Positions 10,745-63,259 of a stretch of DNA of 64,000 bases are shown in pieces. Where the stretch lies: the NCBI GenBank assembly GCA_000091205.1, contig AP006493.2. One strand, 5' to 3'. The stretch's first letter is position 1, and each line of letters opens with the position of its first letter. A program made the position numbers and the translations under genes. The stretch is from Cyanidioschyzon merolae. Lineage: Eukaryota. A model generated the notes under the pieces. The model was not told where the DNA came from. It searched no databases and was given only the letters and a program-made list of their open reading frames with translations.

Positions 10745-11580
10745 TGGTTTCATCCACGTTGGAGAGTAAAGCAGGAGATCGAAATCACGATGCAATATTC
10801 CGTATAGATCGTAGACGGATTGTCTGTAGGATATATATTCTCTAGTGAACAGTGAAAGGAGAACCGCAATCATCATCCTTTAGCTCTGCCATGCCACGGT
10901 GCTAAGATAGTTGAGGAACACTGGATGAACGAAGTACATGCGTTCTGCGCCAAAAACCGATATTGTGAATGACTGCTGTTGTTCAATGGTGGATAACGAT
11001 CCGCTGATCACCACACGGAAAGCAAAAGTGAAGATAACAGCCACCAGGGGCGTGCCTGTTTCTCAACAGCTTGTTCGTGTGGTCCTGAAAACACTGGGAT
11101 ACAGTCGCAAAAAAGGGTCCTGGTTCATACACAGCCAGCTTCCATGGGAATCGAAACTACTACAGGTTTCCTGCGACTCAGTGATCGGCATGAAGCAGGG
11201 GAACCTTGGTTTGTTTTCCCAGTGGATGAGACTTGCTTCAGGTAAAATGGTCGAAGCGTATACAGGTATTCGTGCAGACAGAACCCGTTGTGTGTACGAT
11301 CGAGCTCGTAGAGAACGGGGACATGATCATACGTTCTACCTAAAGTGCATGCACTTGGCGACGTCAGTTTCGCTCGTAGACAAGGCTCATACAACAGCAG
11401 CAACCACTTTGTTGAACCATTGACAACTTTTTCCCTGACGTCCGGCGACGCCCTTCTATTAGACAACGTGACATTTCACGATGCCCTTCGCTTTGTCTTT
11501 CTTCCGCAAGACCTTCTCGCTCGGGGAACGCCATCACCTATGGGCTTGAAGCGGTGCATTCATTTTCAAAAATAAGAAAT
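10745..11580 (+). mobile_element. Decayed repeat module with a Tc1/mariner-like HTH remnant. It is a second copy of the module at 47145..47800 and is contiguous with the Fanzor-like fragment at 11590..12030.
   Basis: Its nucleotide and peptide sequence is similar to 47.1-47.8 kb. Shared peptides include 'GVPVSQ(Q/K)LVRVVL(K/E)T', 'MRLASG' and 'KAHTTAA / EGSYNRS'. The junction sequence 'ttcaaaaataagaaat' matches the 5' end of the 48.1-kb mini-element. Confidence 0.45.
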
Positions 11581-11589
11581 CTAATATTT

Positions 11590-12030
11590 GAGCTAGGGTG
11601 TAAACTTTAGAAGGTCGAGATGGAGAAAAGCCAGCAAAGCGCTCCAGCAATAGAAAAGCACGGAGGACTGACAGAGCAGCAAATTGCGCAGAGGGCGCGA
11701 GTTCTAATAATACATAAAATAGTCAGTTCCACCAGAGGCGACAAACGCATGAAGTTCGTGAACCGATTCTACAACTCCACCATCAATTTCAGACAGTGTA
11801 TGGCGTTGAAGACGAGGCCCGAGGAGAAGAGGCGGTCTAACTTTGTAGGGCAGTGTCTCAGACTCGAAGTGCGTCCGGACAAACTGAAACTGGTTGTATG
11901 CGGAAGGCCAAAAAAAGACTGGGAGGCCTGTGCACCTGGGTATCAATGTACCCTATATGGTCGTGGGTTATTTTTCGTTCCATTAATCACATTTTACATA
12001 CCTCAGGCTGTACATACTCCGATCTAATCT
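11590..12030 (+). mobile_element. C-terminal fragment of the TnpB/Fanzor-like family (degenerate RuvC-III 'VNRFYNSTINFRQC')
   Basis: The peptide 'DKRMKFVNRFYNSTINFRQCMALKTRPEEKRRSNFVGQCLRLE' aligns to the copy-A C-terminus 'DKKRMEFVNRDFNAAINIRRCAVLGNRPPE'. It also aligns to the 39-kb tail 'LKTRPEELTRSNFMGQNLRL'. A terminal-repeat-like sequence, 'aaagactgggaggcctgtgcacc', follows it. Confidence 0.5.
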
Positions 12031-13874
12031 GCTTCTCCAGCTCCGTTTTCAGCAGTCGATGGATGCTGATGACCGTTTTTAAGTCCCGGTGTCGCTGCTC
12101 CAGACTATGGTCTATGCATTTGATGAGTCGGCGAAAGCTGCGATCTACGCTTCGCCTGGCACACTCATCTTCATCGTACACAGCCTCGGTTCGCCCTTTC
12201 CAGCGATGCCACTCGGCTGTGATGAGGTATTGGCGTACGCATCCGCAACGCCTCCTCCTCCGAGCGCCGCCCCGTCGCACGTGAACACTTGCTTCGTCGC
12301 CCGATCAACGCCCCCTGACGGAGAGAAAAGACTTCCTGAAGTGTCCGTCTCCGTTGGCACGCTCGATGGCTTCCGTACCACGCGCGGGCTTCCTTCAGAC
12401 GACGCCCTCGGCGACTACTTTATCCGTTGAACACGCGCAAGCACGAGCTTTTCCATTCCATAGAGGTTTTTTTGTGTCACGCAATATTTCCCATGACAGA
12501 ACACCGCAAGGAAAATCTCGGACGGAGAGCCAGGCGTGGAATTTTGGATCTGTCCGCCTTCCTTGGTACGAAGCGGTGACACACGCTTCTCGGGAAGCGA
12601 TAGCTGCGGTGGCTGAAGTCAAAGTCTACGACCCTTTCTTCCTCGCAAACGGAAGAGATGGGAGCCTCTGGGAGCATATGCCGTAGGTGGATTCACACTG
12701 CTGTCGAATGCAGTTTTGTCCGTAGCCATAGATAAGGACGATTTGTCTGGCAAACCGAATCCAGTGCGATGCGTGAGAATTTGACTGAGCTTTCGGCATG
12801 AGCTTGTAACCAAGTCGTCACTGGTCGACGTCGAGCTTTTCATGCGGAATCTCGCTACGCGAAACGCCGCGCCAACGAGTTTCTTTTGAAGCAGAACGAT
12901 TGAAAACTTGCAGAATACGTGTTTTCAACATGTTACACTTATGACAGGGAGAAGCGTGGAGGCTTGTACATATGAATCGGTTGATGACCCAGGTTTTTTA
13001 CGAGCCCTGGTTCGAAGGCGTCGCCAATCATCCTGATTCCGGTGACCTTACCAATTTCAGAAGCAAAGCGGTGATGGAGCCACTCCAAAAACACAACCGA
13101 GAACGCTAGAACAACGTACGAATTCGCAGTTTCATTGCTGGTCTACTTTGAATGTCGAAGATGAGCTTCTAAAAAAATTTGGAAAGGCAAGAATAGAGCC
13201 AGCAATTCAGCATTCGATTTTAAACTGAAGCGGGTGTAGAGCGCGCCAAGCACCTCATGGTCCGCAGGCACAGCGACAATGCTTCGCGTCATCGACTGCT
13301 TTCGAGAGTGAATCGAACTTTATGGTTCACCTGTACGGGCAAGGTTTGTGACGTGTTCCAGCCACGAACGTCTGGCACGGTGCGGCGCATGGTGCTCCAC
13401 TCCTGAACCAGCAAGCGTGCAGGAATCGTTCGCCGATGCGCGCATGACGTGCTTACTGGCTTGGCAACCAGAATTTTGTGTGCAGCATCGGGTTCATGAC
13501 AGGAATGCAGAACTGATGAATTCCGGTTCTTTTCAGGACCAAGAGATGCAAAGCAGATCGCATCGCATTCTTATTGAATGAACACGATCTATACGGCCCG
13601 TTTCCGGAAGCGGCGCCCTCCAAGACCTAGACAATTCGGTGGAGAAGGTACCCTGTACCCTATGGACGCGAATACGATATCCCCTTGACAAGCAGGCGTG
13701 ATCGATGCGGTTTTCGATGGCTCTCAATTGTGCCGAGGCGCTCCGTGGATACGGTGGCTCGTCTGGATGCGCGTCGATGGAGGACTCGTATCGTTCATAA
13801 GGGATTTGCATACCAGCCCTGGGGGACACGTTGCGTCGACCGGTCTCCTACGAGCGACCTGTCGAAGCACCCTT

Positions 13875-18896: not shown

Positions 18897-20330
18897 TTTG
18901 CACCCATGTCAGAACAGAATAGAATAGAACGAGTCCAGTCAGGGAACGCGGGAGAGCATATTCAAGTGGGAATCCCTTCCAATTGCTCTCAACGCGAGCC
19001 TTTGGGGGCGTTTTCGTCAACTGCTTACGTTTCCTCTCTATGATCGCTGACTTTAACGACGTCGGCTTCCGCTTTCCGTCCGACTCTGTTGTCCGCATCC
19101 GAAGGACGTTCATGGCAGCGTTCAAGTGCCCGATTTCGACGCTGCCGGCTGTTGTCTACGCATTTCGTGCACAGGCAAACGTTGCGATCTACGCGTCGCT
19201 TGCCATACTGTTCGTTTTGGTGTACAGTCTGGGTGCGGCCTCCGCGGCGGCGAAAAGTGGATATGGTCAGGTATGCCCGAAGGTCCACCACGCCTCCGTA
19301 TCCGAAGGCCGCTCTGTGGCGCGACAAACGCTTGCTTTATGACTTGGTACGAGCCCTTACGGGGTAACGGGGGCTTCCGCGTCTGCCATTCTCTGATTCC
19401 GCACCTGGTGTTGTACGCTACGTTTGCGAGCCTCTTCTGGGTCGCGATCCGAGGCGACTAGTCGGTCCGCTGCACGCGCGGGCGCGCGCTGCTGCATTTG
19501 TTGTAGGTTTAGAGATGGCGATGTTGTCCATGAGGAATCATATACCGTCAGGAAAATCTGGGCTAGAGAATCGGTCGAGAAGTCTGGATCCGCGTACGCT
19601 CACTTCATGTAGAGCCGAGAAGTACGCTACAATGGAATCCATCACTGTGATGATCGAAGACTGAACTGAAGACTCGTTACGATGGAAACGGTATAGACGG
19701 GAGCCTTTGGGAGCATATTCCCTGAGAGGTATGCTGCTGGTGGTGCTGGTGCTGGTGCTGGTGCTGGTGGTGCTGGTGCTGGTGGTTCCGAGGTCGTATT
19801 CGTCGTTGACCACACAAAAAATAAGACAGCTGGTCATTCGTGTCTGATCGATTATTGTTCGTGACAAGTCCAGTAAACTTGCGGAATGAGCTTTTGCGCA
19901 AGTCAGCGAGAGACATCGTCGAGTTCGTGCTCCTCGCGAGTCCAGCAGCGCGTATTGGTGCGCTCACGAGTTGCCCCGAAACAAAAATATCTGTATTTTG
20001 AAGCACTCATGATTTGAGCGTGCTCCAGGTAAGAAAAGGAGCAGAGTGGAATCTTGTGTGAACAAATTGATCCGCAGCATCGTAGATATGGCGAGCCCGT
20101 GTCCAACATAGTCACGAATCGTATTGATTCCGGTGGTAACGGGTCGCAGGAACCAGGCTTCCAAATCCGATCAGGAGTTCTGGAACTGCTTATGAGTCCG
20201 TGAGCACTTAGAACTGCGCATCGAACGCTGAGGGTGTAGATCTGAATGTGAGTTGGGGAGAAAAGCGGATAGCTTGGACAAAGCGCGTAGTTTCCTGTTC
20301 TTTTTTAATTTAACTCTGGTGTTGCACCGG
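18897..20330 (+). repeat. Left arm of a large inverted repeat, paired with 23545..24976
   Basis: Every ORF in this arm has a near-identical partner on the opposite strand in the right arm. The coordinate sums are constant at about 43873-43879. Examples are 19126..19461(+)=24412..24747(-) and 19964..20164(-)=23715..23915(+). Confidence 0.9.
19735..19790. repeat. (GCTGGT)n microsatellite inside the left inverted-repeat arm
   Basis: The sequence reads ctggtggtgctggtgctggtgctggtgctggtggtgctggtgctggtgg. Its partner at 24093..24139 is one 6-nt unit shorter. Confidence 0.85.
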
Positions 20331-23544: not shown

Positions 23545-24976
23545 CGCACTTGCGCAACGCCAGAGTCAAATTAAAAAAGAACAGGAAACTACGCGCTTTG
23601 TCCAAGCTATCCGCTTTTCTCCCCAACTCACATTCAGATCTACACCCTCAGCGTTCGATGCGCAGTTCTAAGTGCTCACGGACTCATAAGCAGTTCCAGA
23701 ACTCCTGATCGGATTTGGAAGCCTGGTTCCTGCGACCCGTTACCACCGGAATCAATACGATTCGTGACTATGTTGGACACGGGCTCGCCATATCTACGAT
23801 GCTGCGGATCAATTTGTTCACACAAGATTCCACTCTGCCCCTTTTCTTACCTGGAGCACGCTCAAATCATGAGTGCTTCAAAATACAGATACTTTTGTTT
23901 CGGGGCAACTCGTGAGCGCACCAATACGCGCTGCTGGACTCGCGAGGAGCACGAACTCGACGATGTCTCTCGCTGACTTGCGCAAAAGCTCATTCCGCAA
24001 GTTTACTGGACTTGTCACGAACAATAATCGATCAGACACGAATGACCAGCTGTCTTATTTTTTGTGTGGTCAACGACGAATACGATCTCGGAACCACCAG
24101 CACCAGCACCACCAGCACCAGCACCAGCACCACCAGCAGCATACCTCTCAGGGAATATGCTCCCAAAGGCTCCCGTCTATACCGTTTCTATCGTAACGAG
24201 TCTTCAGTTCAGTCTTCGATCATCACAGTGATGGATTCCATTGTAGCGTACTTCTCGGCTCTGTATGAAGTGAGCGTACGCGGATCCAGACTTCTCGACC
24301 GATTCTCTAGCCCAGATTTTCCTGACGGTATATGATTCCTCATGGACAACATCGCCATCTCTAAACCTACAACAAATGCAGCAGCGCGCGCCCGCGCGTG
24401 CAGCGGACCGACTAGTCGCCTCGGATCGCGACCCAGAAGAGGCTCGCAAACGTAGCGTACAACACCAGGTGCGGAATCAGAGAATGGCAGACGCGGAAGC
24501 CCCCGTTACCCCGTAAGGGCTCGTACCAAGTCATAAAGCAAGCGTTTGTCGCGCCACAGAGCGGCCTTCGGATACGGAGGCGTGGTGGACCTTCGGGCAT
24601 ACCTGACCATATCCACTTTTCGCCGCCGCGGAGGCCGCACCCAGACTGTACACCAAAACGAACAGCATGGCAAGCGACGCGTAGATCGCAACGTTTGCCT
24701 GTGCACGAAATGCGTAGACAACAGCCGGCAGCGTCGAAATCGGGCACTTGAACACTGCCATGAACGTCCTTCGGATGCGGACAACAGAGTCGGACGGAAA
24801 GCGGAAGCCGACGTCGTTAAAGTCAGCGATCATAGAGAGGAAACGTAAGCAGTTGACGAAAACGCCCGCAAAGGCTCGCGTTGAGAGCAATTGGAAGGGA
24901 TTCCCACTTGAATATGCTCTCCCGCGTTCCCTGACTGGACTCGTTCTATTCTATTCTGTTCTGACATGGGTGCAAC
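23545..24976 (-). repeat. Right arm of the large inverted repeat, paired with 18897..20330
   Basis: It is the reverse complement of the left arm. Arm-encoded peptides are more than 95% identical. Similarity ends at the sequences revcomp-matching 'ttttttaatttaactctgg' and at '...VLTWVQ'. Confidence 0.9.
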
Positions 24977-39007: not shown

Positions 39008-39129
39008 GCCTTCCCTGCGGACTGCGTCCGCGTAACCACAGACTGTAAAGGGTTATGAAATAGTGCGCTTTAGTGTGAACAGCTGACTTGAGGGATCAAG
39101 GTGATTGGTGCGGCGCGCGCAAAAACGTC

Positions 39130-39760
39130 GTCTGATTGGTTTGTTTGCGGCCTGTCACCTCAGTTGTGTTCCACCGCAGGAGCGTGTCATCAAAAGCTTG
39201 TTCGCGATTTATTAGAGATGCGTTCGAAGTGCGTTCATTTGAAGAAATGAATAATCCAAGGGATAGGCATGGGTATGCAAGTGGGGATCCTGGAAGTCTG
39301 GTGTCGCCAGTTGCCGGGAAAAACGAAAAAATCCTCTTCTTGCTGAGTATCAAGCGGAGAGGAGCATATGACGAAGAAGAGGACGCAGGGAGGCGATTGG
39401 CGACAGAAGGCGTTTGCCCGACGGAATGATGACGAGACTGCAATGAAAGAGAGGGCGCGAGTTCGAGGAAGCCGTGCAGTGGTGCGTTCAACCAAGGCAA
39501 AGCATGCAAGGAGTTCGTGAACCAAGACTTCAAAGCTGCCTTCATTGTGAGAAATGTGCGATGCTGAAGACGAGACCCGAGGAGCTGACGCGATCGAACT
39601 TTATGGGACAGAATCTCAGGCTCAAAATGTACAAGGAGAACTTGAAGCCGGAGCAGGAACTGCTCAAAAATGGCTGGGGGGCGTCTGTAAATGTGCAAAT
39701 ATATGGACTCTGTGGTTGCGTATCGTTTCATTCCATGGAACGTATTCGCAGATCGTAGCT
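39130..39760 (+). mobile_element. Internally deleted (MITE-like) derivative of the TnpB/Fanzor-like family
   Basis: An NLS-like N-terminal remnant, 'GDPGSLVSPVAGKNEK', is followed by a degenerate RuvC-III segment 'FNQGKACKEFVNQDFKAAFIV' at 39516..39548. The C-terminal tail 'AMLKTRPEELTRSNFMGQNLRLKMYKENLKPEQ' and the terminal motif 'ggggggcgtctgtaaatgtgc' follow. Confidence 0.55.
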
Positions 39761-46409: not shown

Positions 46410-46980
46410 ATCGATTTTTTTTTCAGATTTTCTTTTCAGATGACAAACCGTTTAGATTGACCAAGGATCCCAGAATTCGGAATGGATATTCGCCTTCGGG
46501 AAAGCGTCTACTATGAAGCACCTACCTTCATGTGTCATTACTTATACTTCCTCTCGGATATGCTGGTCGTTTCGTATATTCTATCGTGTACCAAGTGCCT
46601 GCCGTGAAGACACGCCGTAACGCGCTTATACCACTGAAGCAGATCCTGCACGGAGACAGAACGGCTTTGGCATACCACTGAGGGCGTCGGCTCGAGGCGT
46701 GATTCATCCGATACGGGGTCGGAGCACATAATCATTCTGGGAGCCTGCGACAGCGCGAAGCGATATACTAGGAGTCCACTGCGACCAGGGCGACGCTCAG
46801 ACGCAGCGTACGCACTCCTCGTTCCAGAATGAATTGCGTTGCGAACGAGTTGCACAGGTCTCGCCACAGCACCTGCCACTGGAGGAAGCATGAAGCACTA
46901 GCTAGCCCCAGACACTCGTCCGGCTCGCGGGACCTTCCGCCTCGAAAGTAAACTTTCGAACATACGGAAACTTTCCCCAT
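46410..46980 (-). repeat. Dispersed repeat 'X' of about 0.6 kb, in minus orientation. Other copies are at 57470..58060 and partly at 63260..63670.
   Basis: It is about 80% identical over roughly 570 nt to 57.47-58.06 kb. It starts at 'ttcgaggcggaaggtcccgcga' and ends in an A-rich stretch. The paired pseudo-ORFs 46538..46891(-) and 57713..57931(+) share '...PTPSVVCQSRSVSVQDLLQWYKR'. Confidence 0.8.
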
Positions 46981-47144
46981 TTCAACGCTTACTATCAAGG
47001 TCATGCGAAACTGTTATCGAGTTGCTAGTTAGCCGTTAGTTTCTGCTCTTTCAGCAATCTGTCGGGACTCACTATGATTCTGGGAGCCTACATGGCGATT
47101 TATGCGTTGCGATACGCTACTGAAACTGTAACAATGCAATTACG

Positions 47145-47800
47145 CTTCATCCACACTGCCGTGTACAGCAGAAGATCGAAACTAAGGTGCAATGTAGTCT
47201 ACGTATCGAAGATAAATTTCGTGTAGGATATATGCTGTACTGAAAAGTGGAACGAGGACGACATTCCTTCTTCAGGTCACTCAGAACACAGTACTCAGAT
47301 TGTTGAGTGATACTAAGAAAAACAAGTGGATGTTCTCCGTATCGAAAACCGAGATTCTTAAAGCGCGTTTGCGGGCAACAGTACAGAACGACTCATTGAT
47401 CACATTACGGCAAGCTAAAGCGACGATCGCAGCAATCGCGGGCGTCCCTGTCTCTCAAAAGCTTGTTCGTGTGGTCCTGGAAACACCAGGATCCAGTCCC
47501 GAAAAAGAGTACTAGTTCACGCACGGCCAGCTTCCATCGAAATTGCAACGACAGCGTTCCTAGAACGCTCCTATCGGTATGTAGCACAGGGACGTCGGTC
47601 TGTTTTTTTAGTTCATGAGACTTGCCTCTGGCGAGACAGTCCTATCGAAAAGGGGAATTCGCAGAGCAGGGATCCCGTTATGCTTACGATCGAGCTCTAG
47701 GAGAACGAGGATACCGTCTGTGTTAGCCGTAGTGGACTGATTTCACAGCCGCAGTTTCTATCGTAGAGAAGGCTCATACAACAGAAGTATCCACTTCATC
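47145..47800 (+). mobile_element. Decayed HTH module (Tc1/mariner-like transposase remnant). This is the second copy of the module at 10745..11580.
   Basis: The peptide 'KATIAAIAGVPVSQKLVRVVLETPG' and 5' nucleotide similarity match the 10.7-11.6 kb copy. It lies between repeat X (46.4-47.0 kb) and the Fanzor-like mini-element (48.1 kb). Confidence 0.45.
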
Positions 47801-48134
47801 GGATCATTCCAGTCTTTTTCCTAACTTCTTGCAACTTGGAGCTAGTGGACAACGCAGTATTTCATCTTTCCCCTTGTGTTCTAGCTTTTGCCAATGGTAT
47901 GGTGGAGTAGTGCTGCTTTTCATTTCGCGATACTGTCTCTGATTCATCCCCACCGAAGGACTGGTTTCTTCGATGAAAGGTAATGACGTCTCCAGTGTGT
48001 GAATCACAGAAGAATTCAGCACGCGGTGACACATCGGTGCACATTGCGTCTTCTTGCGTATGTCCATCTGCCTCAGGGGAGGTCCCTACCTAGGGGCATA
48101 AAGAAGTGCGTTCATGTTCAAAAAAATGAAAATT

Positions 48135-48480
48135 CCAAAGGCAAGTTATGAACATGAAAGTCGAGGATCCTGGAGGACCGGTGTCGCCGGGTTCGAAGAA
48201 AACGAAAAACTACTCTTCACGCCGACCATCGAGCGAAGGGAGGCAAGTAGCACAGACGAGAGAAGATAGACGGGAAAACATATTTACCCTACTGGGCGGT
48301 GACAAGACTTTAGTGGCACAGAGTGCACGAGTTCTTGCAATCTTCGCGGTGGTTTATTCAACCAAGGCAATGCGCACAAAGAGTGCGTGGACCGAGACTT
48401 CAACGCTGCCATCTATATCAGACGATATGCAGTGCTGAGGACGACATGCGCGGAGCTTATTGGATCCAGCCCCAGCTGAG
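48135..48480 (+). mobile_element. Internally deleted (MITE-like) derivative of the TnpB/Fanzor-like family that retains an intact RuvC-III motif
   Basis: An NLS-like region, 'KVEDPGGPVSPGSKKTKNYSSRR', is followed after a frameshift by 'FNQGNAHKECVDRDFNAAIYIRRYAVL' at 48391..48420. Confidence 0.6.
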
Positions 48481-54341: not shown

Positions 54342-54849
54342 AGGTATCGGTTGTTTGTTATTCCTGCACGATACTGGATGGGATGCTCGACACGATGCAA
54401 TAAAAACGCACTATGAGAAATGGCTGTATTCCGAGCGCGTTGCTACTCATGGATCCCTCGTCGATGCAGAGCGTTGTTGTTTGGGTGCCACGTGAGCCTG
54501 CCTCCTGGCGTCCTCGATGCTCGTCGCCATGTATCGTACCGCGAGTCCAAGGCTCGTTGGACTATGGCAAAGTAGGATCGAAATGTAAGCATGAAGTGTA
54601 GGATCAAACTCTCGATTCATGGGCGATGCGCGAATAGAGATCGTGATGCGTACTGATGACTAACTGGGGATGATCGAAACATCAGCAATCATTTGAAAGC
54701 ATCACTGATGATTCATTTTGGGGCGCTATCGACGTAACGAGTTGCTGCAGCGCCAGAGAAGCCCCTTGATGGCTTGTCGTCTCAGAATCGAGCGTTGTAT
54801 CCATGCCTGATGGTCAACGGGACTGGAAAATTACCGAAATGGAACTGTG

Positions 54850-57175
54850 GGAATGTTTGCAGCGGTATCGCGAGCTTTCACATGCCGACACCGAACACTT
54901 TCCAAAAGTCGAACGATGCCGACCGTGTACAGCAGTGGCGGACGGTGCGCCCTAGACGACGTCTCCATCAGACGTGTAGACGCCTCCCCGTCTTTTTGGA
55001 CCGGCCACCCACTACTGTCTCCAACTTTTTCTCATATTGTTTGACCTTGAGAGGTTGTCCAAAAAAGTTCCTTCTTGTTCACTCTGGAGGTCTGTTCCCC
55101 AGCACCGCACATCTCCGGATATTGATAGCGGCATTAAAATCTCGATTCACAAACTCCATCCGTTTCTTGTCATTACTAGTTGTACTTACTAGTGCAAGTA
55201 GCCCTCGCACTTTTGCCATCCTTTGCATTTGCTTTTCCGTCTGCGGTCCGTACTTTGCTATTTCCTCAGGACTCCTCTGGCACTTTTCCATCTCAACTCT
55301 CTGAAGTATACTCCCCAGCTCATGGAGTGTATACGATGTTCGAAACTCATATACAGGTATCGTAATGAAACGCCGTGCACACTCGTTGTACGTTCTCGTC
55401 GTTGGAGCTCGAGTAGTCCCTTTTTGGGTCTTCCATAGCCCTGCCCCATACGCTACTACGAGACTCTGATTCTCGTCCTTTTTGAAGGCACTCAACTGAT
55501 TGAAAATGTCGGCAAACGCCCGCTGCCTCCCACCATATAGATTCATACGCAAACGAGACCACCGGGGCTTGGTATATTCCTCCCACAGTGCATCCCAATG
55601 AGCAACACGAACTTCCATGAATTTCCGAAAAGCTTCAAAGTCCGCTCTTTGGCTCGACACCTCGCTCAAAGCTTCCAGGTGATCCTTCATCCCTCCATTC
55701 CATGTCTCGATTCTCGATTGTATCTCGATCTCGAGCACCTCAAAAGACGCTTGTCTTTCTGGCTTTAGTTGCCGTCTGTGCCATCTTACCCACGCTTCGA
55801 TGCTGCGATGGTTATGATATTCGTATTCCCAGCGTCCGCGCCAACCATAAAGTTGTTAGCCTCCACCTCCTGCGTCGCAGGACCCGCCTTTCTCTCATCT
55901 TCATGGCTCACCAAGGGCGGGACTCGACGATCTTTCTTCAATAGCCGTTAGTGTACACCCAAGGCTACACCATCGGTTTCGATCATCCCAGTGGACAACT
56001 TTGCTTGCTCGCTCTCAGACGTTTGAAATTGAAGATGTTCTTCCAGTACGTCTGCCGGTATTCGCCGGCGAAGTCCTCCCTACTAGCATCGAACTGGGGA
56101 CTGATCTCCTTCATGATGCCGTGAAGGATTCTGGAGTCGGTACTCACAAAATGTGACTTGATGTTGCACATTGGAACCGCGTTGAGGTGCTTTCTCATTA
56201 GGAAAGCTTTCCGTCTCTCCCACTCTTCATTTTTTCCTCACTCTGCTTCATCTCTGCCTTGCGTTCGAGCTCTGGTCCAGAAACACGAAATAGCGCAGGA
56301 CGAGGCGATAGTATTTTTCTTTGTCTTTTTTCAACTCTGATATCTGTCTGCTGGATTCGCCAGCCCCAAGACTGCACCGTGCTCATGTATAACCGAACGG
56401 ATGAGGGAATTCTCATTTGTGCTCCTGCTTGACGGCTTCTTATCGACGAATTCGACTTCATCTTCATGCTGGCGATCTTTCGCTTTTCCATTGATAATCG
56501 CCCATATTCCTTTGCGAGAGATGCCCGGGTACAGCGCAAACACGGCACGTATTATGAGACGTTCGAGTTTCACGATTACGTGATTCTTCAGGTTCGTGAT
56601 GTACTTCGTCGCCCCTTATACGTAAACATTCGAATCACCTCTGTATGGAGTACTGTTGAAGCTGTGGAAGGGACATTTTTTGTGGAGGTCATGCACTCGC
56701 TCCTTCCTCATCGATGCTTTTCTTGTGTCAGCCATCAGGTGACGAATAAAGCTCTTATCGAAAAACTCGTCCGGAATCTCGACCGTTTCCATGTGCATCA
56801 CGTCGCGATACATCTCGCTCGCCAAATGCATCAGTCCTGACGACGCCTTGACGATACTCTTGGAGTACCAGTCGACACGGTTTCTGATAGCTTCTTGCTA
56901 CTTGAACGGATCCATGATATGTACAAGAAGACAGGCTTTCACCACCATCTCGTTGCACAGTCGTCTTTCTTGCCGCCTTCGACCTAGGGCCTTCCCCTTT
57001 CGGTCCTTCTTCTCTCTTTTTTCTTCTGGATTCCGCATTGTCTTTTGCTTTTTTTTTTCTGGCAGCCGGCGACCCTGGACCTCCAGGATCGTCAACTCGC
57101 TTTTTCATAGCTTTTTTTTTCATCTTTTTTGTGAAAAAGAACGCTCTTTGAACCCTCCTGTTATATGCCACGACA
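54850..57175 (-). pseudogene. Copy A: the longest copy of the TnpB/Fanzor-like (OMEGA RuvC nuclease) element. Its coding region is decayed into several frames.
   Basis: The best fragment, 55079..55738(-), carries the RuvC-II-adjacent block '...ITIPVYEFRTSYTLHELGS...' and the RuvC-III block 'RMEFVNRDFNAAINIRRC'. The lysine-rich N-terminal region 'KKMKKKAMKKRVDDPGGPGSPAARKKKAKD' lies at 56755..57171(-). The middle segments at 56331..56573(-) and 55983..56198(-) match copy B at the peptide level. The 3' terminus at 54960-54990 carries the hairpin AGACG-cctccc-CGTCT. Confidence 0.65.
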
Positions 57176-57469
57176 AAACGCTCGAATATTTTTAGTCGAG
57201 GGTTGAAACGGCATCGGACTGGAAGCTATGATTTGTTACGACTTCCACACAAATACAGCTTGCCTGTTAGAACAGCAAGAAAACGTGTCGTCACGGTCGC
57301 GTTTCTCTTCAAAGGCGACATATGCGTCGTGTCTCGTAAGTGCCATACTTGGAGATGCACGTATCGAGCGCGCCATACAGGAAAAAGGACAGTGACTTAC
57401 GATTTACAAGAAACGATGTAAAATTTTTTCCCGCTCTACGATAAGCGTTTAAGGGGAAACAGATCGCCG

Positions 57470-58060
57470 TATTATCGGAAGCTTATGTTCGAGGCGGAAG
57501 GTCCCGCGACCCGGTCGAGTCTACCGGGCTAAAGCTCGGTATGCCTCTAAAGTGGCCGCTGCCGCTGCTGCTGCAAGACCTGCGTAGCTCGTTCGCAACG
57601 CATTTTATCCTGAGACTATGCACAGGATGCTGCGTTGGGCCTCGCCCTGGTCGCAGTGGAACCCTAGTACAGCACTTCGCGCTGGCGCAGGTAGTAGGTC
57701 TTTCTGCGCACTTTGCATGTTCCCAGAATGACAAATAGCCCTGATTCCGTTTCAAGTGAATCATTCCTCGAGCGGACGCCCTTAGTGGTATGGCAAAGCC
57801 GTTCTGTCTCTGTACAGCACCTGCTTGAGCGGTATAAGCGCTACAGCGGGTGCTCACAACAGGCTCGGCGCTCGATAGAACATACGAAACGACCAATATA
57901 TCAGAGAGGTAGTATGGATAATGGGACTTGAGGACAGGTGCACTATGATCGAGATATCCCCGGAAGCCATCGTGCGTTCCGAATTCTGGGATGCATGGTC
58001 AATGCAAACGTTCTTTCATCAAAAAGAAAAAAACGCTCCGGAGGCGGACTCGTCATCGAG
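57470..58060 (+). repeat. Repeat 'X', plus orientation, immediately upstream of the copy-A N-terminus
   Basis: See 46410..46980. The order and opposite orientation relative to the Fanzor-like ORF match the 46-48 kb locus. Confidence 0.8.
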
Positions 58061-59486: not shown

Positions 59487-60599
59487 GCATGTTGCCTGCG
59501 CATGGTAACGCGTTGGATGCGGATCGTTTACAGGGACGTTAATCAAATGCCTCGTCGAAGTGCGGGCTCTGCACAAGCGTGCTCGGTCTGTACTCAAAAT
59601 AAGCGGATGAACAAGGAGGACTGAGATATGCTGGATACCTATGCCAAACTGGTAGGTCTTGGCACCGTAGAAAAGGTGTGGAGGGGAGCGTCCGTAACCA
59701 TCTCGGCGAGCTTGTTCCAAATGGACAGCATTGCTGGAGGACAAGGTGGCACCAGAATTGCAACTGCAGAGTAGCGTTCGCCTACTATCATCATTGAAAC
59801 CTGCTAGTCGTGTCATGGATACCGGACGTGCTGGAGTTCGCATCCGCAACAGCGAACAAGGATCAAATCAACTGACTCAAAAATCTCCAAAGCGATGCGT
59901 GGATGAAAGCTGGTGAAAGTTGCGGGTCTGGTACGGCATAACGTACGCTTACCCGGATGCCGATATGCATCGCACCTGACCCGAGATACCCTGGTTCAGG
60001 TCAACCATCCTAAACCGCAGGATAAAAGTATGCCATGATTTAACGTTCACTGATGTTGGCTGGACGGCATCGCAACGCTCCACGAACCTGGGCGCGGCGC
60101 CGAAGGCTTAGTTTCCGAGTATGACCGTGACAGACTTTGCTCTATGCGTATGGATCTGGAAAACACGAGCCGGAAGTGTGCATCAGCACGCATGGGCGAC
60201 GAATAAAACCCTTAAAGCGACGTGCGAACAGTGACCTAACGATGCAAGTGGAACGAACCGAATACCCTGAGGTAGGTATGATGGCACAGCTTCTGCCTTG
60301 AGAGCAGCTGCACAAGCGCTTCAGTGCGGTAAAGCCGAAATCGTGCCGAAACGTCCGATTCGCGTCAGCGCTTCTAGTGAACAGGAATGTGCCTCCAGCT
60401 TCTCTGACGTTCCTCTCGCGTCCCAGCAATTCTGGTACAAAGTTTCGCTCTATGCAGCACAGGCGCTGATGCAGCGCTCCTTCGGAAGCCCTGCCTTCCG
60501 CAAACTTGCACCGAGACGTTCCGTACGCAGCTATCGTGGTTATGCTTCAAAACCGGAACGGTATTGCAGTGTCTTGGAAGCGTCGGCTAGAGCTTCTGA

Positions 60600-62850
60600 G
60601 ACCGAAACGTCTCGTAAGACCACCGCACCCGACGACAACAAACATCTTTCGAAACAAAAACGTTGCTGCCGGCAGTAGACAGTACTGGCGAGAAACTCGC
60701 CCTAGACAAGAAGTCGCCAACTGACGTGCAGACGCCTCCCCGTCTTTTCCGACCGGCCACCTACTGTGGGTACCATTTGTTCTTATATAGTTCCAGTTTA
60801 AGAGGTTGTCCAACAATGGACTCTCGTGTCACCGCTGGGAGTCTTTTGTCTATTCCCGCACATCTCCGTAGATTGATTGCAGCGTTAAAGACTCGGTTCG
60901 CGAACTCCATACGTTTCTTGCCGATGGTAGACGTACTTACTAATGCAAGTAGTCCACGAGCTTCTTCCCTCCTTTCCATTTCCTCTCCCGTCAGCTGTCC
61001 CTTACTTTTTTATATCATGACGACTCCGCGGGCACTTTTCAATCTCCATCTTCTGAAGAGTACATCCCAACTCGTGGTGTGTATACGATGTTCGGAACTC
61101 ACCCACAGGTACCGTAGCGAGACCCAGTGCGCACTCCTTGTCCATTCCTGCCGTTGGAGCTGGTGTAGTCCCTTTTTTCGGAGCCCAGCCCCCTACATCA
61201 TATGTAACAACGAGCCTCTGACTTGATCGTCTTTCAAGCCGTTCAACCCATTGAAAAAGCTCGCGAATGCGTGATGCTTACCACGGCACAGATTCATACG
61301 CAAACGTGCCCAGCGGTGCTTTGTATACTCGCCCTACAGCGCCACGGAATGAGCAACCCCAACTTCCAAAAATTTCAGAAAAGCTTGAATGTCCGCTCAT
61401 CGGCTCGTCACCACGCTCAAAGCCTCCAGGTGATCCTTTATTCCTACATTCCACGTAACGATCTTCTTCCTTGCATTCGTTATACCGGATTCTCGATAGT
61501 ATCTCTCTCTCTCGAAAACCTCAGCAGAAGCATATGTTTGTGGCGTAAGGTGCAGTCAGTGCAATCTTCCCTTCGCTTGTGAACAGCGATGGTTATGAGA
61601 TTCGTGCTCCAGGGACTAAGGCCGACGCCAAAGTGGTTTTCATGGGGCTTATACGTTCCATAGCCCGTCAACCTGTGTTCGTTCTTCGGCAAGGGCCGTA
61701 AAGAAGACGGGATAGGACGAGCTGCCTTCAACCGCTGATGGTGTACACATATGTGCGCCACATCGAGATCGATTGTTCCAGTGAATAACCTTTTTTTGGC
61801 CGGTTCGGGACACTTGAAATCGAAGATATTCTTCTCGTAGGCGTCCCGATCTTCACCGGAGACCTATTTGTTGATTACATCGAGCTATGGATAGATCTCT
61901 TTCCTGAAGATGCAAAAGGACTATGGGGTCGATATTCACAAAATGTGACTTGAACGCGCATAACCGACCGACATTGAAGCGCATCTGGAGAAGACTTCAA
62001 TGTCGTTTCTCGCACTCGTCTTTTTTTCCACACTCAGCTCCATGCCGACCCTGCGATCGAGGTCTCGGACCGAAAACATGAAGCAGGGCAGGTTGAGAGA
62101 GTAACAACTCTATCCGTCGTTTCTCATATCCGAGAGTTTTCTCTTGGGTTGACATGACCCAAGACCGAACGATGTTTTAGAATAGTCGCGCGAATTACAG
62201 AAGCATCATTCATTATCCTGCGTGATGTCCTCTTGTCGACGAGTCTGATCTCCTGTTCATGCTGGCGATCGTTCTTCATACCGTCGATGATTGCAAGCAT
62301 CCCTTCGCGAAATAGGCCATGGTACAGCACAAAGGCGACGCGTATCATGAAACAATCGAGGTTTGCCATTTTATGGTTCCTCACATTCATAAGGCACCTC
62401 TTTGCCCTGTATTCGTAAATGTCTGCGTCACCCCTGTGTTCAGCACCGAAGACGAGGAATTTGGCGTAATTTTTGAGGAAGGCATGCACTCGCTCACTTA
62501 TCCCCGATGTTTTCCCATTAAAAACAATCAGGTAGTTGATGAAAGTCTTTTGGAAAAATTTTTCCGGAAACATCACTTTCGCGATAAGCGTTACGTCCCG
62601 ATGCAGGTCGCTGTCCAAATGCCAACGTCCTAAAGAGAAGATACAAACATACCTGGCGTACGAACCGACACGGTTTCTGATAGCGTCTCGCAACAATCAG
62701 TCGTACGGATCATTGATATGTTGGAGAAGATAAGATTCCACCACCATCTTGTCGTACAGAAGTCACAATTTCGGCCTTCGATGTAAGGCCCTCCCATGTT
62801 GCTTCTTCTTCTGTTCTTGACCCTCTTCGCTAAGCACTACGTCTCGTTTC
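60600..62850 (-). pseudogene. Copy B: second long copy of the TnpB/Fanzor-like element. It is more decayed than copy A.
   Basis: The ORF 60761..60979(-) reads 'LLALVSTSTIGKKRMEFANRVFNAAINLRRC...GQPLKLELYKNK'. The ORF 62124..62696(-) matches copy A at '...GMLAIIDGMKNDRQHEQE...'. The 3' end at 60721-60745 contains 'gacgtgcagacgcctccccgtctttt'. Confidence 0.6.
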
Positions 62851-63259
62851 TTTCTGACATCCGGCAGCACCGGCCACCCCAAACCCACAACCTCCAAATA
62901 CATAAGTCTAATTTTTGTTTTGGGAGAAAAACTCATTGGACGCTTCTGCTTTGAACGGCGAAAATAAGTTGAATACCCTTACTTAATGATTGAAACGCCA
63001 TAGGAGCCAAAACTATACTTTGCTACGATTCGATCAGAAATACAAGTGGCCCCGATAGAGCAGTCGCTCCAGAAGAGGTCATTACCGCGTTTCTATTGAT
63101 CGGCGAGATGCACGTAGCGTGACGTGACGGCCAGATTTCGCGATGCGTTACCAGGACGCACGATATAGAAAATGCCAAAAAATTGACAATATCCAAAAAC
63201 GGGGTACCAAGTACTAACGCCACCTACTGTAGACGTTAAAAGGAAGAAGTCTTTGCGTA

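Follow-up and report, generated by a model that had tools for sequence, protein, structure and literature searches.

Short internally deleted Fanzor1 copies in Cyanidioschyzon merolae and their link to an IS630/Tc1-mariner-type transposase pseudogene

The 64,000-nt window analysed here (the whole stretch of DNA, from contig AP006493.2) is eukaryotic and intron-poor, and its host is Cyanidioschyzon merolae 10D, an alga whose genome is among the smallest and best-finished of eukaryotes. Four of the proteins encoded in the window are identical to annotated proteins of strain 10D. Near 39 kb and 48 kb the window carries two short sequences, M39 and M48, that resemble little more than the two ends of a nuclease gene, and the question they raise is whether such minis descend from a deleted copy that went on to multiply or are fragments of longer insertions that decayed where they stood. 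C. merolae is cited as free of MITEs, and its main Fanzor family has gone without an assigned class since 2013; the origin of the minis bears on both points. We consider it likely that M39 and M48 are inactive remains of a subfamily of the Fanzor1-carrying CMe-1 family that arose by internal deletion and was amplified from one master copy. The history that the minis reflect is an ordinary one for transposons, set in a genome of unusual compactness; what is new is their physical link to an IS630/Tc1-mariner-type transposase pseudogene, and they are not a new kind of element.

The parent family is represented in the window by two full-length units, F1 and F2 (Table 1), which are both decayed, share 67.7% identity over 2167 nt and have a repeat unit of about 2.5 kb. 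Relatives were sampled at 80 metagenome loci amounting to about 1 Mb, with more than 514 stretches confirmed; most of the loci on which the present account draws thus come from metagenome contigs of C. merolae-like populations and not from the 10D assembly itself. A full-length DNA profile was built from 21 full-length copies, and its consensus contains a single ORF of 734 aa without interruption. Introns were considered as the cause of the frame breaks in F1 and F2 and rejected on account of this uninterrupted consensus. The 734-aa consensus has a basic NLS-like N-terminal segment (MKKQVDDPGGPVSPAARKKQK), and further along the RuvC-I aspartate, the TS zinc-finger region and the RuvC-III 'RD' follow in order (VVGADPGNTNIITIA, FRTSYTHHELGC...EKCQRS and, near the C-terminus, FVNRDFNAAINIRR). 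The motif order described for Fanzor1 is D-X(125,275)-[TS][TS]-..-RD (PMC3627910). The zinc-finger region of the consensus is degenerate, its cysteines being partly replaced when read by eye (HH..C..C).

Direct searches with the nuclease were uninformative: single ORFs, the 734-aa consensus and profiles gave nothing significant against Pfam, and a single sequence or shallow profile gave E=0.08 or no match against the PDB. A profile search of the whole protein library returned 1225 relatives, many of them 600-700 aa long. The deep profile A7, made from one family member and 36 distant full-length homologues, matches three solved Fanzor1 proteins, those of Parasitella (9CF0, E=2.6e-21), Spizellomyces (8GKH, E=1.2e-12) and Guillardia (9CER, E=1.5e-5), and it is these matches that identify the parent gene of the minis, at the level of sequence, as Fanzor1. 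An AlphaFold2 model of P0005 from a 25-sequence alignment had a mean pLDDT of only 38.8 and was unusable for comparison of the RuvC fold. As a separate observation, the Fanzor ORF contains an in-frame tandem repeat of 75-78 nt at consensus 1481-1560 (unit approximately VTKDEEKKEADPATQKVQDNDFVVG), present in 1 to 6 copies depending on the locus (e.g. L008 1071-1373, L048 9417-9791).

A Fanzor1 element of about 3 kb, CMe-1A, has been described from C. merolae, with about 150 copies that are about 80% identical to their consensus (PMC3627910), no TIRs, TSDs that could not be determined and no assigned class (Bao & Jurka 2013, PMC3627910; Repbase). Its 5' 635 bp constitute a separate repeat of about 70 copies, TE-N2_CMe (PMC3627910). 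The family seen here matches that description in its host, in the size and cargo of the element, in the likeness among copies (about 75-80%), in the lack of TIRs and of determinable TSDs, and in a 5' segment of about 635-660 bp of the same kind as TE-N2_CMe. Thus F1 and F2 are taken as CMe-1A copies, an assignment made by the description in PMC3627910. The repeat, about 650 nt long, precedes most full-length copies; it adjoins the nuclease unit in either orientation, and it also occurs alone, as in the window about 90 nt upstream of the transposase segment described below. We had considered the segment as a coding part of the element, and rejected this because it is the separate TE-N2 repeat, found alone and in both orientations.

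Two features of this repeat may be recorded in their own right. To judge from the copies in Table 1 and those at L005, L060, L078 and L079, the repeat meets the Fanzor unit on its left at one point, in both orientations, and it contains an internal inverted repeat of about 190 nt (profile 211-407 against 497-691). Full-length copies that lack TE-N2 have instead a conserved upstream stretch with a 12-nt palindrome, GGACACGTGTCC. The constant point of joining, together with the palindrome upstream of the TE-N2-free copies, suggests site-specific insertion.

Table 1. Positions of the elements and reading frames discussed, numbered along the window
Feature	Position	Strand	Remarks
Second V copy	10749-11579	plus	about 170-nt deletion near 3' end
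ORF inside second V copy	10938-11423		weak HTH_Tnp_Tc3_2 match
M11, third deletion derivative, other breakpoints	11589-11990	plus	Fanzor part after second V copy
211-aa ORF across M39	39096-39731	minus	antisense to M39
M39, complete type A mini, 596 nt	39155-39750	plus	two abutting profile matches
Solo TE-N2_CMe-like repeat (about 650 nt)	46422-47057	plus	matches the description in PMC3627910
V, degenerate IS630/Tc1-mariner-type DDE transposase pseudogene	47146-48102	plus	directly upstream of M48
M48, type B Fanzor remnant	48103-48470	plus	same junction as M39; leader replaced by V
F1, full-length Fanzor1 unit, CMe-1A type	54836-57376	minus	ORF with frameshifts and stops
TE-N2-like segment upstream of F1	57377-58030		
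F2, second full-length Fanzor1 unit	60554-63160	minus	more decayed than F1
TE-N2-like segment upstream of F2	about 63160 to about 63769		diverged

Against the 21-copy profile both minis resolve into two matches. M39 aligns with consensus 151-431 at 39150-39431 (E=9e-25) and with consensus 2174-2454 at 39422-39694 (E=1e-32), which places its deletion junction near 39425-39431, and M48 aligns with consensus 230-335 at 48104-48211 (E=2e-15) and with consensus 2199-2366 at 48316-48464 (E=2e-10). Read from left to right, M39 starts with a left terminus; next come a 5' leader, the first 55 or so Fanzor1 codons and the junction, and then the last 100 or so codons with a degenerate RuvC-III motif and a 3' tail. 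The translations of M39 (GDPGSLVSPVAGKNEK and FVNQDFKAAFIVRN) and of M48 (EDPGGPVSPGSKKTKN and VDRDFNAAIYIRRYAVL) both contain the DPGGP..SP..KK motif and the RuvC-III motif. These motifs and the two-part matches bear out what had been read from the letters, namely that the two copies join the NLS-like N-terminal segment to the RuvC-III and tail segment. The internal deletion had been put at about 1.8 kb of coding sequence; we place it at consensus ~433-2175, or about 1.74 kb. Beside coding sequence the minis retain about 120 nt of 5' leader and about 60 nt of 3' tail.

The two minis are colinear, with 67.7% identity over 365 nt (E=4e-28). A mini-only profile, made from eight mini copies at loci outside the window, finds M39 as one continuous match at 39155-39746 (E=1.6e-123) and M48 at 48072-48470 (E=6.7e-78), and gives two distant matches on each of the full-length copies in the window. 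M48 is truncated at its 3' end, at position ~449 of the 607 of the mini profile, and so lacks the last 150 nt or so of other minis.

The junction itself bears on the origin of the minis. Consensus ~432 is joined to consensus ~2176 at 13 independent loci in the roughly 1.1 Mb sampled, a count from which repeats of one locus across several metagenomes were removed. Six of these are of a form that we call type A (M39, L014, L020, L049, L057 and L075), and seven are of type B (M48, two copies at L025, and L036, L086, L091 and L092). In a multiple alignment all mini copies are colinear through the junction and agree to within a few nucleotides, and the type A copies have in common a left boundary near consensus 150 and a right end. 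Over the shared segments pairwise identity is 66% between minis and 75% between full-length copies, and only 52% between a mini and a full-length copy; the minis form a star-like clade of their own, apart from the full-length copies, with diagnostic differences from all of these that are common to the minis. A single junction at 13 unrelated loci in a separate mini lineage points to a deleted master copy that multiplied, and to judge from these sequences the minis bear the signature of such an event long ago.

It might be argued that each short copy goes back to a separate full-length insertion, deleted and decayed where it stood, with no mobilisation afterwards. All copies are old and full of indels, and other deletion forms exist (the M11 type discussed below, and a form at L009, L011 and L017 with consensus position 403 joined to 1100), so deletions do happen in the Fanzor family. 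We nevertheless regard this explanation as very improbable, as it would have to account for junctions at 13 independent loci that differ by no more than a few nucleotides, for the separate mini clade with its diagnostic differences, and for a type A left boundary that is absent from full-length copies. The sequence-only reading had expected unrelated decay to leave randomly differing breakpoints without shared termini; what we see is one junction throughout and, in type A, common boundaries. Its description of the minis as non-autonomous deletion derivatives holds good to this extent and can be extended, as the copies were amplified after the deletion; it requires amendment for M48, which belongs to another subtype than M39. 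With regard to the form at L009, L011 and L017 (e.g. L009 4689-6467), we note that it appears to be a single locus in three metagenomes.

C. merolae recombines homologous DNA efficiently, and this lends some weight to the alternative that the minis spread by segmental duplication or by gene conversion between existing insertions, and not by transposition. Types A and B share their junction and differ to the left of it, and at least one recombination or replacement event is needed to account for that. However, the flanks of the 13 loci are unrelated on both sides and contain different genes (DnaJ, aminotransferase, Spc25/SKA1, NUDIX, ParA and others), and conversion could shift a junction among existing copies and yet would not create the short left boundary at new loci. 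Duplication or conversion as the means of spread is accordingly an unlikely account.

How type B differs to the left became clear from the sequence upstream of M48. In type B (M48 and the six others) a segment of about 960 nt, V, takes the place of some 42 nt of the leader; upstream of M48 this segment is degenerate and yet of full length. The consensus pseudo-protein of V scores 62 bits with Pfam DDE_3 (cut-off 28.6; E=7.4e-17) and 105.6 bits with NCBIfam transpos_IS630 (cut-off 100; E=3.2e-30); it has an HTH and the motifs DET, LLLDNVAFH and NPIE, with 35 residues from the second D to the E, and intact relatives of about 295 aa are found in other metagenomes. Since V is a transposase pseudogene, M48 is the tail of a composite of transposase and deleted Fanzor, and V and M48 together are one composite element of about 1.5 kb. 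V occurs at 10 independent loci, at each of which it is followed by a deleted Fanzor remnant, and V itself is a pseudogene in every copy. None of these 10 loci in about 1.1 Mb combines V with a full-length Fanzor gene in one element.

The second copy of V in the window leads a different Fanzor remnant, M11, in which V and consensus ~228-265 are joined to 2102-2456 and the tail. This arrangement (10749-11990 in the window) recurs at L032 and L088, giving three loci in all, and the C-terminal coding region retained in it exceeds that of M39 and M48 by about 75 nt. As M11 keeps more C-terminal sequence than type B, an ancestor with both V and a full-length Fanzor gene would be needed, and it is from the M11-type breakpoints that we infer such an autonomous element.

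Elements in which a DDE transposase lies upstream of Fanzor1, in the same orientation and within one repeat unit, are known from the mariner/Tc1-associated Fanzor1 group of other eukaryotes and of viruses (PMC3627910; PMC10530073), and the V-bearing composites resemble these. They differ in that the transposase is here found only with a deleted Fanzor remnant and always as a pseudogene, and in that TIRs and a TA duplication were not found. The paper on CMe-1A (PMC3627910) makes no mention of a deletion subfamily of about 600 nt, of the M11 type or of an associated transposase, and it leaves the class unknown. The deleted forms seen here are joined to an IS630/Tc1-mariner-type transposase pseudogene. 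A Fanzor family has thus given rise to an amplified deletion subfamily that is coupled physically to a transposase gene of this type, and the coupling provides a concrete candidate for the movement of the family, with ends and junctions that can be tested.

From these arrangements we propose the following course of events. A single in-frame deletion of about 1.74 kb in a master copy would have removed the sequence from codon ~55 to just before RuvC-III, leaving in place the leader at the left end and some 360 nt at the 3' end with the right end included, and the deleted master would then have been copied to many new sites. Its junction is seen in two forms, the non-coding type A of about 600 nt and the type B of about 1.5 kb in which the transposase replaces about 42 nt of leader. 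The M11 type would represent a second and independent deletion in an ancestor with transposase and full-length Fanzor. Type A may have moved in trans, most plausibly by means of the IS630-type transposase of its type B relatives, and after this burst all copies would have drifted neutrally, with no present function. Mobilisation of type A in trans is itself something that we infer, and the transposase in question is only a candidate.

The ends of the elements are a difficulty for this proposal: an IS630/Tc1-mariner mechanism would predict TIRs and a TSD and neither was found. Type A and V-bearing elements have the same left terminus, TTTCA[AC]CTCA[AG]TT..GTT[TC]CA, and the same right end, ..TTTTTCGTTTCACTGA, and in the consensus ends the TTTCA[AC]C motifs stand as direct and not as inverted repeats. 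Comparison of the left end of each copy with the reverse complement of its right end gave only matches of 8-18 nt at the level of chance, and no TIR was found in the consensus ends. Aligned flanks show no evident duplication, with boundaries that are resolved only to about 5-10 nt because the copies are about 20% decayed; TA often lies a few nucleotides outside both ends of a mini, which is not beyond chance, and a TA target duplication is not demonstrable in the aligned ends of V-bearing elements. On the left, full-length copies extend beyond the minis by about 150 nt or more, and the minis therefore lack the left end of the full-length family.

The term 'MITE-like', which had been applied to M39 and M48 at the outset, does not fare well by these results: direct end motifs, the lack of TIRs in single copies and consensus ends, the lack of an identified TSD and the different left end make it only loosely apt. 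M39 does resemble MITEs and other non-autonomous derivatives in being short (596 nt, the usual size being below about 800 bp) and non-coding, with all frames broken, in having a single internal deletion and both end regions, and in belonging to a set found at many unrelated sites. Dispersal of many copies from one deleted master, a further trait of MITEs, is seen in the 13 junction loci and the 3 of M11 type. M48, being part of a transposase-bearing composite of about 1.5 kb, does not share the size and coding trait, and the minis as a whole are unlike MITEs in their lack of TIRs or a recognisable TSD, their modest copy number, their age and a left end that is not that of the full-length family. 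A survey of MITEs reported none in the C. merolae genome (PMC3964958), which fits the absence of TIRs in the minis.

Two other ways of reconciling spread with such ends may be considered. The minis, of which little more than the element ends and the 3' region coding for guide RNA would have been kept, could be hitch-hikers on the Fanzor system, retained or copied through a nuclease that full-length copies provide in trans, by RNA-guided cutting of empty sites and recombinational repair; we give this little credence, though if true it would account for spread without TIRs or TSDs in an efficiently recombining alga. A weaker variant is that an IS630-type transposase and Fanzor ends make up a hybrid element that moves in a way departing from canonical Tc1/mariner transposition, with TTTCA[AC]C repeats at its ends that are direct and not inverted.

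A related idea is that the minis are guide-RNA satellites, which keep the 3' 360 nt or so and which owed their retention or spread to Fanzor protein that full-length copies provided in trans. In Fanzors that have been characterised, the source of the guide RNA is 3' sequence adjoining the right end, and its conservation extends into the ORF; stand-alone extra guide-RNA copies are reported from Chlamydomonas (PMC10530073). In keeping with this idea, the 3' end is kept over 360 nt or more in both of the independent deletion classes, and behind the stop codon small hairpins occur in both lineages. Against it, RNAalifold, applied to the 3' regions of 29 full-length copies and 13 minis, gave practically no structure common to them (-0.38 kcal/mol), folding z-scores for the full-length tail are modest (mean -1.2), and Rfam gave no match. 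Conservation is flat along the mini (0.63-0.73), without a better-kept 3' block, and the full-length Fanzor1 copies in the window are all broken. We think it improbable that the minis are such satellites.

The Chlamydomonas elements provide a useful comparison in another respect. Like the minis, many CRe-1/2/3 Fanzor1 copies and the stand-alone guide-RNA copies (PMC3627910; PMC10530073) keep the 3' terminal region and lose internal or 5' parts. The CRe-1/2/3 copies are Helitron2-like with variable 5' truncation, whereas the minis have a constant 5' boundary and a constant junction, as expected if they go back to a single master copy and were not truncated again and again; a conserved RNA structure could not be demonstrated here. 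With respect to hairpins in general, full-length right ends (e.g. 54836-54900) have a 10-bp terminal hairpin, CGTCGTTCGA/TCGAACGGCG, just inside the right end; one full-length subfamily has the hairpin AACGTTTTTC/GAAAGACGTT with a shifted register, and in the minis the place matching the full-length terminal hairpin is taken by GGGTA..TACCC, likewise a hairpin, and variants of it.

What remains of the amplified subfamily that we favour appears to be inert. Every mini copy is broken in all frames, and M39 has no intact ORF on the plus strand. In the mini consensus the N- and C-terminal parts are fused in frame, save for one shift in an A-run, and therefore the original deletion of about 1.74 kb was probably in frame, as far as the consensus allows us to say. 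With RuvC-I and RuvC-II gone, what is left of the protein cannot act as a nuclease. None of the relics is annotated, and repeat annotation stands to gain from them.

M39 lies about 150 nt upstream of the DnaJ-like gene BAM80639, and this allows its state to be followed among strains. Among 10 strain variants examined at this locus, no empty site or other polymorphism for presence of M39 was seen; all carry it, with 98.7-99.5% identity, similar to that of the flanks. There is no sign of recent movement or present function, and young copies were not found, so mobility is deduced only from the distribution of copies. The claim that the family was mobilised in trans is therefore kept as a reading of that distribution, given that the copies are old (about 66% identity) and that M39 is present in all 10 strain variants.

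The 211-aa ORF that runs antisense across M39 is probably a chance ORF. Gene callers predicted ORFs of 200-220 aa at the position of M39 in other strains, but this one has no Pfam match, and no identical sequence occurs in the protein collection.

Two minor observations concern other parts of the window. Among strains, the 147 nt that separate the DnaJ-like gene from M39 (39008-39154) vary clearly more, with 94.6-98% identity, than do M39, the genes and the sequence downstream, with 98.5-99.9%. Elsewhere there is a 1.4-kb inverted repeat with arms at 18898-20325 and 23554-24975, which are 99% identical and 3.2 kb apart; the arms hold (TGCTGG)n-like tracts, and a segment at 12041-12294 is 66% similar to part of the repeat.
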